From Promethearchaeati archaeon SRVP18_Atabeyarchaeia-1 (GTDB lineage: Archaea > Asgardarchaeota > Atabeyarchaeia > Atabeyarchaeales > Atabeyarchaeaceae): a stretch of DNA of 64,000 nucleotides. The notes beneath the pieces are model-generated. The model saw only the letters and a program-made list of their open reading frames with translations. It did not search any database and was not told where the DNA came from. The stretch lies in the NCBI GenBank assembly GCA_037308085.1, contig CP147779.1, positions 448,001 to 512,000 of the forward strand, written 5' to 3'. The position numbers and the translations under genes are program-made. Position 1 is the stretch's first letter, and every line of letters starts with the position of its first letter. Below, piece after piece: positions 3,293-59,804 of this stretch.

Positions 3293-4024
3293 ACCTTTAA
3301 TGTCATCATCCATGACTAGATGATTGTGAGCTACGAACTCCTTGAAGGGTGTGGGCTTTCTGGTTCAATTTGATAAGATTCTGTTGAGGACCGATCAGTC
3401 GGCGGAGGCAACTCCATCCATCTGCTATCTTGCAGGTACGTTCAGAGATGGTTGCATATCAACCCAGTGGCAGATCAAGATCAAGCAGAAATCGAGGCAG
3501 TATCTTCTCAATAAGATCATACCAATACTAAACCAAGAATCCAATCTCCATTTGACAGAGAGAGCCGTCTATTTGCAGGCTGACGCAAATAGGCGCTTTT
3601 ATGTCGCGTTCAAGAGAAAGAAGGCATGGGGGCAGCTCAGGAAAACTTTCAGCATCCCCCCAGACAGTGTAAGTTAGGGAACGCCGCCGTTCGTCAAAAA
3701 ACTAGACAAAGCCCTGTTGCGTTTCTATATACAGGGCTTCTTTGACGCTGAAGGTGGAGTGCCCCGTAACCCGATGAGCTCCAAATTGTACATCTCATTC
3801 ACCCAAAGAAACCGTGAATCCCTAGAGTTTCTAAGAAACAAGCTGTATTCCGAGTGGAATATTGTCTCGGGCAGGCTGAGGATTTCTGATAACAGGTCCC
3901 ACTGCTGGAGGTTCACGATTGCTGGGCTAGGCTCGATCAAACGATTCATGACAGAGATTGGAACGGAACATCCATCTAAGGAGAGAAGATTCACTATCAT
4001 TTCGAATCTGCTTAAAGGCTGGTA
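3293..4024 (+). mobile_element. LAGLIDADG-bearing BHB-type intron in a duplicated 16S helix 45 copy
   Basis: CCTTTAA(3294-3300)/TTAAAGG(4012-4018) stem, TTGG/CTGG central helix, bulges TG^A and TA^G; followed by a copy of the 16S last exon. Confidence 0.6.
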
Positions 4025-6482: not shown

Positions 6483-7358
6483 AGGGACGCCCCCGCGAGG
6501 TTTCTCGCGGTCGTCATCAACCTAGTTTCATGTTGAGTAGGCACTTCTGTGTTTGGAGGCGCCGTGGCGCCGGTGTATTGTCTCTTTCTCTTGCTGACCG
6601 CAATACTTATAATGGGTTCACCGCACTATCTTTGAATTGCGGTAGAGAGATGGCTTTGCAGCTGTTACTCTATCGCCCTCATGATGAACTTGAGATGCAA
6701 CTCGGGAGGATTGTACAATTGGGCCTCTCGGGTGAAGGGCAAAGTGGGGATTCACATGGTTACCATCCTCACGATAATTGCCGTGCATAGGCTCCATCTG
6801 CTAGATCGTTCGTACGAGGAGAACCCAGGTATATCCAACACCAAACTGGACCAAGGTTATGAGTAAGGTCTGACATGCCTACGCCGCCTGGAGGATGGCT
6901 AGGCTTGGGCGCCGAGGAAGGCCGTGGCAAGCTGCGATAAGCCTCGGGTAGGCGCACGCTGCCTGCGATCCGAGGATTGCCGAATAGGACTTCCTGACTA
7001 AGGTCAATAACCTTAGTCGCTCCCGTCAGGGAGTGGGAACTCTCCGAAGGGAAGCATCTCAGTAGGAGAAGGAAAAGAAACTAACAAGGACTCCCTTATT
7101 AGCGGCGAGCGAAAGGGGAAAAGGGCAAACCGAATCCTGCAGGGAAACCTGCTGGAGATGTGGGGTTACAGGACCTAGCTTCCACCTCTTCGAGGAAGTT
7201 GAAAGACATGGAAATGTCTGCCTTAGAGGGTGATAGCCCCGTAAGCGCAACTCGAAAAGTGCAGGGCTGGGGATCCTGAGTACCGTGGACTGCTTACTCC
7301 GCGGGAATTTGGGAGCTACCGACTTCCAACCCTAAGTACGTCCCAAGTCCGATAGCGC

Positions 7359-7392
<34 letters not shown>

Positions 7393-8803
7393 GGAAGGGG
7401 GGTGAAAAGGGCCTGAAACCAGGCGGTTATAGACGAGCGCGGCCTGAAAGGGTAGAGTCTTCCCGAAGGAACCCGGGGTGACCCGGTAGTACGAGGGAAG
7501 AGGACCAGGGTTGCGCTATCCGTCTTGAAACACGGGCCGGGGAGTTCACGCTTGTGGCGAGCCTAAGGAGGTAAAGCTCCGTAAGCGAAGGGAAACCGAC
7601 ATGCCCGCAACCGGCTTAACTGTCGGCGAGGGGCGGGGTCTGAAAGGGCCTGGAGTCACATGCGTGGAACCCGAAGCTGGGCGATCTAGCCCTGGCTAGG
7701 ATGAAGCCAGACGAAAGTCTGGTGGAGGTCCGCAAGGGTGCTGACGTGCAACTCGCTCCCCTGAGCTGGGGCTAGGGGCAAAATACTAATCTAGCCCAGG
7801 GATAGCTGGTTCCCCCCGAAGTAGGTCGTAGCCTAGCCTGGCTGGAGGTTGCCGACGGGGTAGAGCACCGACTGGGGAGCAAGGGATCGAAAGATCCCAC
7901 TTTCCTATCGAACTCCGAACCTATCGGCGCCGTAGAAGGCCAGAGACGGGTGCCTAGGGATAAGCTCTTGGACCGAGAGGAGAACAATCCAGACCGGGGT
8001 TAAGGCCCCAAAGTGCCGGCTAAGTGTCAAACCGAAGGGCGTCCGCAGCCTCAGACAGCAGGAGAGTAGGCTTAGAAGCAGCCATCTCTCAAAAAGTGCG
8101 TAACAGCTTACCTGCCGAGGTTGTGGGCCCCGAAAATGGACGGGACTAAAGCCGGCCGCCGATACCCCGGGGCACGGTGTAGCACCGTGATCCGGTAGGG
8201 GGGCGTTGCGGTTGGGTCGAAGCTGAGCCGTGAGGTTCAGTGGACCGACTGGAAGTGACGATCCCGGCAGTAGTAACAACAAAGCCAGGTGAGACTCCTG
8301 GCCGCCGAAGGGGCTCGGGTTCCTCGGCAACGCGTCGTCAGCCGAGGGTTAGTCGATCCTAAGGCTAAGCTTAACTCGCTTTAGCCGAAAGGGAAACTGG
8401 TTTATATTCCAGTACCATGGAGGTACGATTGCGGCGACGCTAAGCTTGGTTCCTGACGCTTCCGGGTAGGTTGAGCAGGGTCTTCGCCCTGTTTAAGTGT
8501 ATAAGCCTAGGGAGGGCCGTAAAGGCGAGAACTAGGTGAAAGCACGAATAGCTGCCCGTTTAGGGCGGTTCAGCCGAGCTCAGGAGCCCGTGAAAAGGGA
8601 GCCAAGAAGGATCCTCCATGACCGTACCTAGAACCGACACAGGTGCCCCTAGGTGAGAAGCCTCAGGCGTGTCGGAATAAACTCGGGCAAGGGAATTCGG
8701 CAAATTAGCCCCGTAACTTAGGGATAAGGGGTGCCTGGAACCTTTAGCGTAAAAACTTGGGGTTCTAGGTCGCAGTGACTAGGGAGGCCTGACTGTTTAA
8801 TAA

Positions 8804-8836
8804 ACGGACGAAGGCACATGCCCTTCTCCGATTAAG
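8804..8836 (+). other. 23S BHB intron (33 nt, about E. coli 1784)
   Basis: Helix TAAT/ATTA, bulges AA^A and AG^A; splicing gives TTTAATAA|AAACATAG. Confidence 0.9.
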
Positions 8837-8964
8837 AAACATAGCTTCCCGCAAGCGCGTAAGCGTGTGTACGGGAGGTGAATCCTGGCCAGTGCAGGTA
8901 CGTTAAGCCTGGTTTCAACCGGGTGAAGCGCCTGTAAACGCCGGGAGTAACTATAACTCTCTTA

Positions 8965-9013
8965 ACAGGCTTTGGGGAGACAGTTCATGTGCTCTCCCCC
9001 CGGCCTGGGGGAA
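8965..9013 (+). other. 23S BHB intron (49 nt, about E. coli 1927)
   Basis: Helix CTCT/GGGG, stem CAGGC/GCCTG; splicing gives CTCTTA|AGGTAGC. Confidence 0.9.
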
Positions 9014-9579
9014 AGGTAGCCAAATGCCTTGTCGGACAAGTACCGACGTGCATGAATGGACCAACGAGGTCTCTACTGTCCCTGCCCGGGGGCCGGTGAA
9101 CCTACGTAACCTGGCGAACGGTCCAGGAACCCCCAAGGGGAAAAGAAGACCCCGTGGAGCTTTACTGCAGCTTGGTGCTGGGGTGCGGTTGCGGTTGCAG
9201 AGCGTAGTCGGGAGCCGTTAATACCAGTCCTTTAGGGGGCTGGCTAGGCGCCAATGCCACACCGACCTTCCATGACTGTATCCCTAACCGAGGGAAACCC
9301 CGAGACAACGCTAGGTGGGCAGTTCGGCTGGGGCGGCACGCCCTTGAAAAGGTATCAAGGGTGCCCAAAGGTCGGCTCAACCGAGACAGAAACTCGGCGT
9401 AGAGGGTAAGGCCAAAAGCCGGCCTGACTGAATCCTGAAAAGCAAAGGATGCAGAGGCGAAAGCCGGGCCTAACGATCCTTCATGTCCCTCTCGGTGAGG
9501 GCTGGAGGTGACAGAAAAGTTACCCCGGGGATAACAGAGTCGTCGCGGGCAAGAGCCCATATCGACCCCGCGGCTTGCT

Positions 9580-9611
9580 AGTTAGGAAGATTCGTTCTTC
9601 CTGACCGGGAG
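9580..9611 (+). other. 23S BHB intron (32 nt, about E. coli 2496)
   Basis: Helix CTTG/CGGG, stem GTTAGG/CCTGAC; splicing gives GCTTGCT|TCCTCGATGTCGG. Confidence 0.88.
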
Positions 9612-9670
9612 TCCTCGATGTCGGCTCTTCCCATCCTGGAGGTGCAGCAGCCTCCAAGGGTAGGGCTGTA

Positions 9671-9820
<150 letters not shown>

Positions 9821-9884
9821 ACAGGTCGGGTTTTATCTCTTGGGGGTGCAGGGTCGCCTGAAGGTAAGGTACCCTCAGTACGAG

Positions 9885-9918
9885 AGGGCTGGAGTGCTTT
9901 GTGCACCTGCTCCGTAAG
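9885..9918 (+). other. 23S BHB intron in the sarcin-ricin loop (34 nt)
   Basis: Helix TACG/CGTA, both bulges AG^A; splicing gives AGTACGAG|AGGAAC. Confidence 0.92.
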
Positions 9919-30077: not shown

Positions 30078-31692
30078 CTGGAAGTCCCCAAACTTCGGGT
30101 CGGGGATAGAAGCCCAAACCATTATGCGTTGTTAGAGTATACTGTTTTCTTGGTAGCCTAAATGAAGTACAAGCTTGACAAGCCCTCGCATGCTGTGTTC
30201 TCGCCGCAGTACCATTTAGTGCTAGTTATCAAGTACCGGCGTAAGGCTCTTTGCGGCGAAACTATTAGAGAGCGTTTTAAGAATATTATATGGGGTTTAG
30301 CAGGGCAGCTTGGCGTAGGAATAATCGCTCAAGAACCTGCCGAAGACCATATTCACCTTCTTTTCAAGGCTAAACCGGGCACCGACCCTGTGAAGACCGT
30401 TAATACTTTGAAGGGTGTGACGGCGAGGCTTCTCCGCAAAGAGTTCCCTCAACTAAAAGAGTTGTTATGGGCCGGCTCGTTCCGGTCTGACTCTTACTTT
30501 GTGGCAAGCACAGGTCAGGCAAGTCTTGACGTGTTGAAGAAGTATGTGGAGGAACAGCAGGGTGTTGAGCCAAAAGTTTAGGCTGTATCCCTCTAAGACG
30601 GTGGAGAGGAGGGTTGAGGAGAATCTTGAGTTGTGCAGATGGCTCTATAATCGGTTACTTGAAGAACTGAACAAGGCTAAGGCTGAAAAGGGAAGGCTCG
30701 CGTGGAAAGATACCCAGGCCCTCATTGTGAGGTTGAAACTGGAAAAGCCAGAGTTAAACGTGGTTCACTCTAAGGTTTTGCAGATGCTGAATTATCAGCT
30801 TTGGAGCAATATCCACACTTTGGCTGGGGCCAAGAAAAGTGGGGGGAAGGTTGGCAAATTAAGATTCAAAGGTGGATGGCTCAAAAACTCTCAACTTCAA
30901 CCAATCCGGATTCAAACTGGAAGGAAGAAAGCTGCATTTTTCCAAAATCGGAGCGATCAATGTGAAGCTTCACCGTGCCCTCACAGGAAAAGTCAAGGGT
31001 GTTATTGTCAAGCGGTCGCTCTCTAGGAAATGGTATGCAGTGTTTCAAGTTGAGAATTCAGTGGTTAACCATCTGCCTGAAACTGGAAAGGCAGTAGGCT
31101 TGGACATGGGTGTAAAACATTTTCTATCGGACAGCATCGGAAGACAGATTGAAAACCCGAAGTTCTACGAGAAGTCTCTTGCAAGATTGAGGGCTACGCA
31201 CAGAATTCTGTCACGAAAGGAGAAGACGTCAAAGAACAGAGCAAAAGCGAGAGTTAGGCTCGCAAGGGTTTATGAACGACTGGTGAATCAGCGGGACGAT
31301 TTTCTGCATAAACTCTCAAGGTGCCACGTGAATACCTATGATGTTACTGCAGTCGAGGATTTGAATGTTAGGAGCATGGTTAGGAATCATCACCTACTTA
31401 GCGCGAAAAATCCATGATGCCTCCTGGAGCAAGTTCTTTCAGATGTTATCCTACAAAGCTGAAAACGCTGGTGGGGTACTTGCAAAAGTGAATTCGAGAG
31501 GCACAAGCAAAGAGTACAAGCACGGCGAGCTTGACCGTGACTACAATGCTGCGCTCAGTATTTTGGAGCGTGGCTTAGCGGGGTTGGGACGACCCTTAGA
31601 GCCTGTGGAGATAAAGCCTCTGCTGGTAGCGGTGCCCGCAAGCCTTATCGTTGAAGCAGGAAGCCCTCACCGTTCAGGGCAGGGTAGTTCAC
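30078..31692 (+). mobile_element. IS200/IS605-family element
   Basis: tnpA plus tnpB; related subterminal hairpins GGAAGTCCCC...GGGGATAG (left) and GGAAGCCCTC...AGGGTAGTTCAC (right). Confidence 0.85.
30162..30581 (+). CDS. tnpA: IS200/IS605 Y1 transposase
   Basis: YHLV...KYRR, DHIHLL HUH motif, SYFVAS.G, KYVEEQ. Confidence 0.92.
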   Translation: MKYKLDKPSHAVFSPQYHLVLVIKYRRKALCGETIRERFKNIIWGLAGQLGVGIIAQEPAEDHIHLLFKAKPGTDPVKTVNTLKGVTARLLRKEFPQLKELLWAGSFRSDSYFVASTGQASLDVLKKYVEEQQGVEPKV

Positions 31693-31712
31693 AAGGTTTC
31701 CCTATCGCTTAA
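30561..31712 (+). pseudogene. tnpB: TnpB broken by two frameshifts
   Basis: FRLYP HTH, GLDMG RuvC-I, AVEDL, DRDYNAA spread over three frames (breaks near 30885 and 31397). Confidence 0.88.
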
Positions 31713-39177: not shown

Positions 39178-40468
39178 GTGGAAGAATACGCTGTCAAAGA
39201 CTTAAGCCTAGCACCTCAAGGACATAGCAAAATAGATTGGGCGGAATCTCACATGCCAGTTCTCATGATAATTCGTGAACGATTCGCAAAAGAGAAGCCA
39301 CTGGCTGGCAAGAGAGTATCAGCTTGTCTTCACGTAACCAAAGAGACGGCCGTGCTAGCAAGGACGCTCCGCGCGGGTGGAGCCAAGGTCGCGCTGTGCG
39401 CATCCAATCCTTTGTCGACGCAAGACGATGTTGCAGCCGCTTTGGCCAACGAGGGTTTCAACGTATATGCTTGGAGAGGCCAGAATACAGAGGAATACTA
39501 TGATTGCGTAAACAACGTGCTTAACTACGCCCCTAATATCACTCTGGACGACGGGGCTGACCTGATCACAAGCATTCACACGAAACGCCAAGAACTATTC
39601 AAAGGAGTGATAGGTGGATGCGAAGAAACTACTACTGGCGTAATCCGACTCAGGGCCATGGCAAAGCAGAAAGTCCTCAAATACCCAGTGATAGCTGTCA
39701 ATGATGCACAGACCAAATGGTTCTTTGACAACCGCTATGGAACTGGGCAAAGTAGCATCGACGGAATATTGCGGTCGACCTCGGTTCTACTTGCTGGAAC
39801 AAAAGCAGTTGTCGCCGGGTACGGTTGGTGCGGGAGAGGGATAGCGACTCGATTGAAAGGTATGGGATGCAGGGTGATTATCTCTGAGGTAAACCCCCTA
39901 AGAGCTCTTGAAGCAGTGATGGATGGGTTTGACGTAATGCCCATGTCTGATGCAGCAAGACAAGCAAGACTTTTCGTGACGTCCACTGGAGACAAGAAGG
40001 TGATAACAAGGGAGCATATAGACGCCATGCAGGATGGATCAATACTTGCTAATGCTGGGCACTTCAACGTCGAAATATGGGTTCCTGACCTTGAGAGTTT
40101 GTCTGTAAAGAAGAGAGAGATAAGGTCGAACGTCGAGGAATACACCCTAAAGGATGGACGACGAATATACCTATTGGCTGAAGGGAGACTCGTCAATCTG
40201 GCTGCGGCTGAGGGGCACCCCAGTGTTTGCTTCAGCAGTAACTAGCTGGGCAACTGGACAGGTCATGGATATGAGCTTCTCAGATCAAGCTCTCTCAGCT
40301 GAATACCTAGCTAAGGAAGGAAAAACACTGAAACCAGAGGTCTACCTTGTTCCGGCAAGAATAGACAATCTCGTCGCCGAATTGAAGTTGGAGTCGATGG
40401 GGATCAAGATAGACAAACTGACAGAGGAGCAGAAGGAGTACTCGCAAGGATGGACTGAGGGGACATAG
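39178..40468 (+). CDS. ahcY: S-adenosylhomocysteine hydrolase; exons 39178-40225 and 40260-40468 (418 aa spliced)
   Basis: [30 protein letters not shown]; GHPSEVMDMSF restored by removing a 34-nt BHB intron. Confidence 0.92.
40226..40259 (+). other. mRNA BHB intron in ahcY (34 nt)
   Basis: Central helix CCAG/CTGG, bulges TG^T and AC^A, intron stem TTGC.TCAGC/GCTGG.GCAA, exon stem ACC/GGT. Confidence 0.88.
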
Positions 40469-59699: not shown

Positions 59700-59804
59700 G
59701 GGCCCGTGGCCTAGTCAGGATAGGGCGCCAGCCTCCTAACTCATTTCTCCCCGCAAACCGGAGAGAGCTGGTGGTCGAGGGTTCAATTCCCTCCGGGCCC
59801 GCCA
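59700..59804 (+). tRNA. tRNA-Arg(CCT) with canonical 37/38 intron
   Basis: GGGCCCG acceptor, CCAGC-CTCCTA|A-GCTGG, CCA encoded. Confidence 0.92.

Follow-up and report, generated by a model that had tools for sequence, protein, structure and literature searches.

A probable BHB intron interrupting the single ahcY-family gene of an Asgard archaeon

Spliced archaeal mRNAs and related systems

The cbf5 pre-mRNA of Crenarchaeota contains an intron, reportedly described by Watanabe in 2002 and by Yoshinari in 2006. The cbf5 intron has also been treated by Yokobori in 2009 (PMC2738675), and in the literature that we searched, cbf5 of Crenarchaeota is the only archaeal coding sequence for which EndA-type splicing has been confirmed, other cases being referred to only as "predicted" (PMC2738675, PMC7714728). 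Here, we describe an insert in the ahcY gene of Promethearchaeati archaeon SRVP18_Atabeyarchaeia-1, which lies within a 64,000-nt stretch of the genome (contig CP147779.1, positions 448,001 to 512,000 of the forward strand). We refer to this whole stretch as the window, and positions are counted from its first letter unless indicated otherwise. The ahcY insert resembles the cbf5 intron in being short, of the BHB type and located in coding sequence, within a codon of a catalytic or invariant motif. It is also predicted to be cut by a hetero-oligomeric EndA behind the second bulge base, and it, too, is distributed patchily, having been gained and lost among close relatives. The two differ in their host, which is here the metabolic gene ahcY in the Asgard phylum, and in their structure, relaxed motifs being the majority among cbf5 introns, in contrast to the strict canonical hBHBh' of ahcY. 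They differ further in that splicing of cbf5 has been demonstrated, with cDNA and in vitro, whereas that of ahcY is deduced here from sequence. The cbf5 gene of this genome has no break: its TruB_N matches are contiguous within one open frame of 291 aa, and no interruption of the cbf5 type, at the catalytic Asp codon, was found.

The tRNA BHB introns of Atabeyarchaeia and Freyarchaeia share with the ahcY intron the lineage, the motif and presumably the enzymes. The recurrence of inserts at one ahcY codon, GHPS/E (the slash marks the interruption), parallels the repeated gains and losses at identical positions described for the tRNA introns of both groups (bioRxiv 10.64898/2026.10.13.758758). 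The tRNA intron load of this lineage is extreme, 92-95% of the tRNA genes being interrupted (PMC11291895). In contrast to the tRNA introns, that of ahcY is hosted by an mRNA, and the exon half of its motif consists of codons, so that protein and RNA-structure constraints overlap. Neither the Atabeyarchaeia papers (PMC11291895) nor the preprint on tRNA introns (bioRxiv 10.64898/2026.10.13.758758) mentions introns in protein genes. In the window itself, a 102-nt tRNA recognized by Rfam at 59700-59801 (71-position model) and missed by ARAGORN is probably intron containing, as the lineage would suggest.

Two further systems invite comparison. In Haloferax volcanii, a BHB intron is found in the 5' UTR of HVO_1309, where the mRNA is processed by EndA and the circular intron has been detected (Schwarz 2020, PMC7714728). 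Being located in a UTR, that intron interrupts no reading frame, whereas the ahcY intron lies in coding sequence. In eukaryotes, the HAC1/XBP1 mRNA is cut by Ire1 and ligated by RtcB or Trl1 in a stress-regulated manner. The likeness to ahcY lies in protein-only splicing of an mRNA at paired stem-loops, with a change of the C-terminal frame and joining by a tRNA ligase; the endonuclease (Ire1) and the motif are different, and regulation is not evident for the ahcY intron.

The ahcY gene, its insert and the predicted fold

The ahcY gene occupies positions 39178-40468 of the plus strand, and a reading of its sequence together with the open reading frames places a break directly after GHPS, at a 34-nt insert. 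The upstream frame of the ORF list extends from a GTG at 39178 to 40245, and the C-terminal part of the enzyme (VMDMSFSDQ...WTEGT, followed by the stop) is encoded in a different frame that closes at 40468. Deletion of 40226-40259 joins G40225 to AG at 40260-40261, which gives GAG (Glu), the peptide GHPSEVMDMSF and a continuous protein of 418 aa. Exon 1 (39178-40225, plus strand) thus comprises the GTG start, 349 codons and the G that opens the split Glu codon. It is followed by the BHB intron (40226-40259, plus strand), the excision of which produces GHPS-E-VMDMSF, and by exon 2 (40260-40468, plus strand), which begins with the AG completing Glu and continues for 68 codons to a TAG stop at 40466-40468. 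Within the intron, a TAG in the exon 1 frame (40243-40245, plus strand) terminates the unspliced product at 355 aa.

Exon 1 matches positions 1-139 of AdoHcyase (PF05221) and positions 1-161, that is, the whole domain, of AdoHcyase_NAD (PF00670), and exon 2 matches positions 225-285 of AdoHcyase (PF05221). The same Pfam architecture as that of both exons combined is present in the intact orthologue from the sister genus (G002, L006; 420 aa). Exon 1 is 82% identical to this orthologue, and the spliced 418-aa protein is colinear with it, without a gap at the junction. The whole genome, which is closed in a single contig of 2,808,651 bp, contains only this one AdoHcyase match. Some archaeal AdoHcyase members use S-inosylhomocysteine as their substrate. 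Judging from its domains, the product of this ahcY-family gene would be an S-adenosyl-L-homocysteine hydrolase or the closely related S-inosylhomocysteine hydrolase.

The sequence-only reading had held that absence of the insert from DNA reads would speak against an intron, but contigs of three sequencing runs (labelled as wetland or freshwater-sediment metagenomes) carry it. DNA contigs of run X1, including one of 27 kb, span the entire ahcY gene and are identical to it. A contig of X3 (39401-40280) and one of X4 (40073-40353), both from a different study than X1, bridge the insert, and the X4 contig represents a strain variant with five differences in the exons and none in the intron. No spliced joint was detected among the DNA contigs of four runs. 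A joint that skips 44 positions (depth 2, side 23, with 10 other letters in between) and a loose end at 40220 were assigned to intronless ahcY genes of other organisms. In a collection of 5.8 billion proteins, we found neither a spliced-form nor an intronless protein of this species, exon 2 being at most 82% identical to the longer proteins.

The ahcY junctions form a strict hBHBh' motif, with an outer helix h of 3 bp, a central helix H of 4 Watson-Crick bp, two 3-nt bulges on opposite strands and an inner helix h' of 5 + 4 bp, all on the plus strand. In the outer helix, ACC of the His and Pro codons (40217-40219) pairs with GGU (40261-40263), consisting of the third Glu base and the GU of the Val codon. 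In the central helix, CCAG of the exon (40220-40223) pairs with CUGG of the intron (40254-40257). The 5' bulge is UGU (40224-40226), with the predicted cut at 40225/40226, and the 3' bulge is ACA (40258-40260), with the predicted cut at 40259/40260. The inner stem-loop h' (40227-40253) is built from UUGCU (40227-40231) paired with GGCAA (40249-40253) and CAGC (40233-40236) paired with GCUG (40245-40248), closed by an 8-nt loop (40237-40244). As stated for cbf5, the cleavage site of EndA lies between bulge residues two and three (PMC2738675), and this rule leads to exactly the ahcY junction that restores the frame. Our re-reading agreed in every position with the break at GHPS-E-VMD, the 34-nt insert, the pairings and the bulges that the sequence-only reading had described, and reproduced its GAG codon and 418-aa protein after a cut behind the second bulge base as well as its unspliced stop at 40245.

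The canonical BHB fold has an energy of -16.0 kcal/mol, 1.9 higher than that of the MFE structure (-17.9). The MFE register is off by one base, with a 5-bp helix CCAGU/ACUGG, and would cut out of frame. The folding energy is ordinary in comparison to shuffled sequences (z = -0.14). When the whole genome was scanned, motifs of at least the quality of that in ahcY, defined by H of 4 bp, h of at least 3 and h' of at least 6, occurred at 1.8e-6 per (start, end) pair. The signal above chance is the geometry at the sole frame-restoring position, and the comparison with relatives strengthens it. No second copy of the intron was found in the whole genome by blastn-short, and the intron is thus not a repeated element there; nor did Rfam give a match to it or to the 191-nt intron of a relative described below.

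Two EndA paralogues (tRNA_int_endo) are encoded in the genome, one of 209 aa with a catalytic Y/H/K context and one of 241 aa, along with an intact RtcB (583 bits, 490-aa open frame). The paralogues map to G000:C1:202619-202873 (minus strand) and 624258-624518 (plus strand), and RtcB maps to G000:C1:1025457-1026764. Asgard EndA is reported to be of the broad-specificity (alpha-beta)2 type (PMC5829648). We propose that the ahcY pre-mRNA would fold locally, exon positions 40217-40223 and 40261-40263 engaging with the intron in the hBHBh' structure, and that a heteromeric EndA would cut both 3-nt bulges behind their second base, i.e., after 40225 and after 40259. RtcB would then ligate the exons and probably circularize the 34-nt intron. 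In RNA letters, the junction is predicted to read ...CCCAGUG joined to AGGUCAUG, such that in the spliced form ...CACCCCAGUG would be placed directly onto AGGUCAUGGA... Spliced mRNA would be translated into the 418-aa enzyme, and unspliced mRNA would give the shorter product, lacking the last 69 residues.

Relatives, other insertion sites and other genes

The congener G001, which comes from a separate assembly of 280 contigs and shows 85% amino-acid identity in exon 1, carries a 34-nt insert at the identical nucleotide. Between the two genomes, synonymous differences per site reach 0.71 in exon 1 and 0.86 in exon 2 and are thus saturated, with dN values of 0.089 and 0.058, respectively. Such low dN at saturated synonymous sites indicates strong purifying selection on both exons, including exon 2 in its post-splice frame. 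In the intron, 5 of the 34 bases differ (29/34 conserved), two of them in the loop, one in the 3' bulge and two in the inner helix, where G-U is replaced by C-G and U-A in G001. Among our observations, only this conservation of the entire 34 nt would accommodate an additional function to some extent. The ahcY gene of the sister genus (G002) does not contain the insert.

When 400 genomes of the phylum were searched by pattern, inserts of 31-32 nt emerged at exactly the GHPS/E codon in 12 genomes from nine genera of family f6. These introns (L045-L056) share the core GCATTYGYTGC and are scattered, congeners without an intron being present. A further insert, of 191 nt, was found at the same ahcY nucleotide in G037, a closed, Freyarchaeia-like genome of 3.58 Mb. 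Most relatives of the Atabeyarchaeia genome under study lack an intron at GHPS/E. The relaxed f6 introns (G331, G334, G370 and G375) and the first two introns of the G037 gene were read by eye. Pattern matches in family f9 (G264, G272 and G295) lay outside ahcY and were discarded as due to chance.

A stop in the exon 1 frame is present within all 15 same-site introns, a count which, like the others given here, represents about three lineages rather than independent events and overstates independence. Cutting behind the second bulge base also restores the conserved peptide for the 31-, 32- and 191-nt introns. The outer helix h is paired in 13-14 of 14 same-site introns, and pairs 1-4 of h' are formed in 11-13 of 14, with 3-5 different pair types. 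At the third pair of H, where the wobble base of the Pro codon meets an intron base, seven genomes have C-G, another seven U-A and one a mismatch (14 introns were tabulated, six of them with U-A; the seventh U-A is that of G348, read by eye). In f6, imperfections are seen in three introns whose central helix ends, on the inner side, in a G.A mismatch, and in one with a G.A at pair 3. The Glu codon is G/AG in 14 of 15 intron-bearing ahcY genes, whereas 20 of the 25 intronless genes in this sample have GAA, and the Ser codon is AGY in all intron-bearing genes. Codon choice in the exons of intron-bearing ahcY genes thus appears to lean towards pairing. The sequence-only reading had proposed looking in related genomes for inserts at the same site with compensatory changes, and G001, the f6 genomes and G037 provide them.

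The introns of the three lineages have nothing in common beyond structurally constrained bases, and the conserved exon sequence CAYCCNAGYG^AGGU already provides the outer helix and half of the central helix. We tentatively consider it possible that GHPS/E is a recurrent insertion hot spot, at which the 34-nt introns of the Atabeyarchaeia genus g1, the 31-32-nt introns of f6 and the 191-nt Freyarchaeia-like intron were independently gained at one nucleotide, the alternative being a single ancient intron that was lost many times. If true, repeated gain would imply that BHB introns are actively inserted into mRNAs, guided by structure, in the archaea most closely related to eukaryotes; they might enter, for example, through reverse splicing catalysed by EndA and RtcB and subsequent reverse transcription or recombination.

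BHB introns were also observed elsewhere in ahcY. The gene of G037 (L037, G037:C1:1875800-1878200, minus strand) carries three BHB inserts, at EETTTG/I, at KWE/FDN and, with the 191-nt intron, at GHPS/E. An in-frame insert of 27 nt, containing a TAA, interrupts the ahcY gene of G028 at KWE/FDN, and three congeners of this genome (G140, G141 and G143) have one TAA each within the ahcY match. In G020 (L033, G020:C270, about 2350-2383), a 32-nt BHB insert is located at GHFDIE/IP, with an 11-bp inner hairpin and AAA/AAA bulges, and its canonical register (H = AUUG/CAAU) restores the frame. BHB introns thus strike ahcY at four different sites across Asgard genomes. Six further ahcY genes (L014, L022, L024 and L034-L036) contain 57-66 extra in-frame nucleotides near residues 135-160, which may be protein insertions or frame-cancelling pairs of introns.

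In the genome under study, a similar insert interrupts gatE (G000:C1:2219068-2219108; L062:369-409). It measures 41 nt, forms a strict BHB motif with h of 4 bp and h' of 8 bp, and is placed at ...CLLEA/DEEPPH..., splitting a domain, as the exons match positions 2-30 and 45-276 of GatB_N. A genome-wide census returned about 52,000 loose BHB motifs, and those joining open reading frames numbered 384 in frame versus 342-355 in the out-of-frame controls, values at which true introns are not countable. When the census was ranked by motif quality, only ahcY and gatE stood out; the third top candidate (657550) is the end of a PolD-like gene and a false positive. The candidates within the window at 2366/2403, 3603/3676, 31375/31455 and 31648/31687 were rejected as chance-like or as belonging to a frame-broken TnpB-like gene.

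Several other features of the window were noted in passing. The TnpB-like frame (IS200/IS605 OrfB type) extends over 30863-31709, with a frame break near 31375-31455 and no convincing BHB motif. The 16S rRNA match (464-2889) covers 2426 nt for a model of 1478 positions, and the 23S rRNA match (6867-10208) covers 3342 nt for 2987 positions; this excess length points to large intervening sequences in both rRNA genes. An open frame of 249 codons (1619-2366) lies within the 16S span, and another (3330-4022), between 16S and 23S, contains a LAGLIDADG-like motif (GFFDAEGG) and may encode a homing endonuclease. Finally, the archaeal RNase P RNA match (12808-13204) has 397 nt for a 288-position model and may carry an insertion.

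Role of the ahcY intron, alternative explanations and significance

The sequence-only reading had regarded the insert as a BHB intron destined for the tRNA-splicing machinery, the retention of which would leave a truncated protein only. In agreement with it are the structure and restored frame, the conservation and covariation, and the selection acting on exon 1 as well as exon 2; moreover, the gene is present in a single copy, and the genome encodes both EndA and RtcB. We thus consider it very probable that the single ahcY-family gene contains a genuine BHB intron spliced by EndA and RtcB, and that production of the full-length enzyme depends on this splicing; cleavage and ligation of the pre-mRNA themselves we infer from these observations. 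Most simply, the ahcY intron would be one of many BHB introns that have spread through an intron-rich lineage, and it may be kept because loss of its structure would kill the gene.

A real and spliced intron could in addition have a dedicated regulatory function, as a checkpoint making SAH-hydrolase output, and with it methylation capacity, depend on tRNA-splicing activity. The stop within every same-site intron would make unspliced mRNA nonproductive, the intron, including its loop bases, is far better conserved between this genome and G001 than synonymous sites are, ahcY has been struck at several sites across Asgard genomes, and a role as negative regulator was once proposed for the cbf5 intron (PMC2738675). 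However, the intron is missing from the sister genus and from most relatives, the unrelated gatE gene of the same genome has an intron of the same kind, and the saturation of the lineage's tRNA genes with introns (PMC11291895) fits a nonspecific spread. Moreover, the 34 nt revealed neither a sensor nor an alternative fold or condition-dependent element, and we saw no sign of a dedicated regulatory role. We therefore regard such a checkpoint as improbable. The coupling of RNA-processing capacity to methylation capacity that the sequence-only reading had suggested gained no support, given that gatE and other ahcY sites in Asgard genomes bear introns and G002 has none.

It is very unlikely that the gap is bridged in translation, by ribosomal bypassing or programmed frameshifting, rather than by splicing of the RNA, even though cbf5 cases were at first mistaken for frameshifting by others (PMC2738675). 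A +1 or -2 shift would be unable to skip 34 nt with a stop six codons in, and the matched take-off and landing codons that bypassing calls for are absent. Bypassing would also leave unexplained the strict 3-4-3 geometry of the BHB motif, the compensatory changes between exon and intron and the fact that, for introns of 31, 32, 34 and 191 nt alike, a single cut rule yields exactly the conserved peptide.

Slighter still is the chance that ahcY is a split gene or a decaying pseudogene, in which the 355-aa N-terminal product is used, with or without a separate C-terminal piece, or the gene is dead. An ATG at 40154, 36 codons upstream in the exon 2 frame, could provide a start for such a piece in this genome, but it is missing in G001, where the exon 2 frame is open for only 4 codons upstream. 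The invariant Glu would be lost. A split gene or pseudogene is further at odds with the strong purifying selection on exon 2 in the spliced frame (dN of 0.058 at saturated dS). An intact second ahcY accompanied by other signs of decay, which the sequence-only reading had named as evidence to the contrary, was not seen: this is the only ahcY in the genome, and the gene has no further lesions. That the insert is an artefact of sequencing or assembly can for practical purposes be dismissed, as we found no point in its support, the 27-kb X1 contig covers the whole gene, contigs of another study, including a strain variant, bridge the insert, and inserts are present in the separate assembly G001 and, at the same site, in 13 other genomes.

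With EndA/RtcB splicing of a genuine intron as the preferred explanation, ahcY represents a clean canonical BHB case in a central-metabolism gene of an Asgard archaeon, with the same codon affected again in three lineages. It would also offer a short, well-defined substrate for biochemistry. Such introns affect gene calling, and the databases contain truncated or scrambled ahcY proteins for these genomes. Together with gatE and the other ahcY sites of relatives, the ahcY intron adds to the evidence that protein-only splicing of mRNAs may be routine in some Asgard lineages, and it also has a bearing on the spread of introns before or alongside eukaryogenesis.
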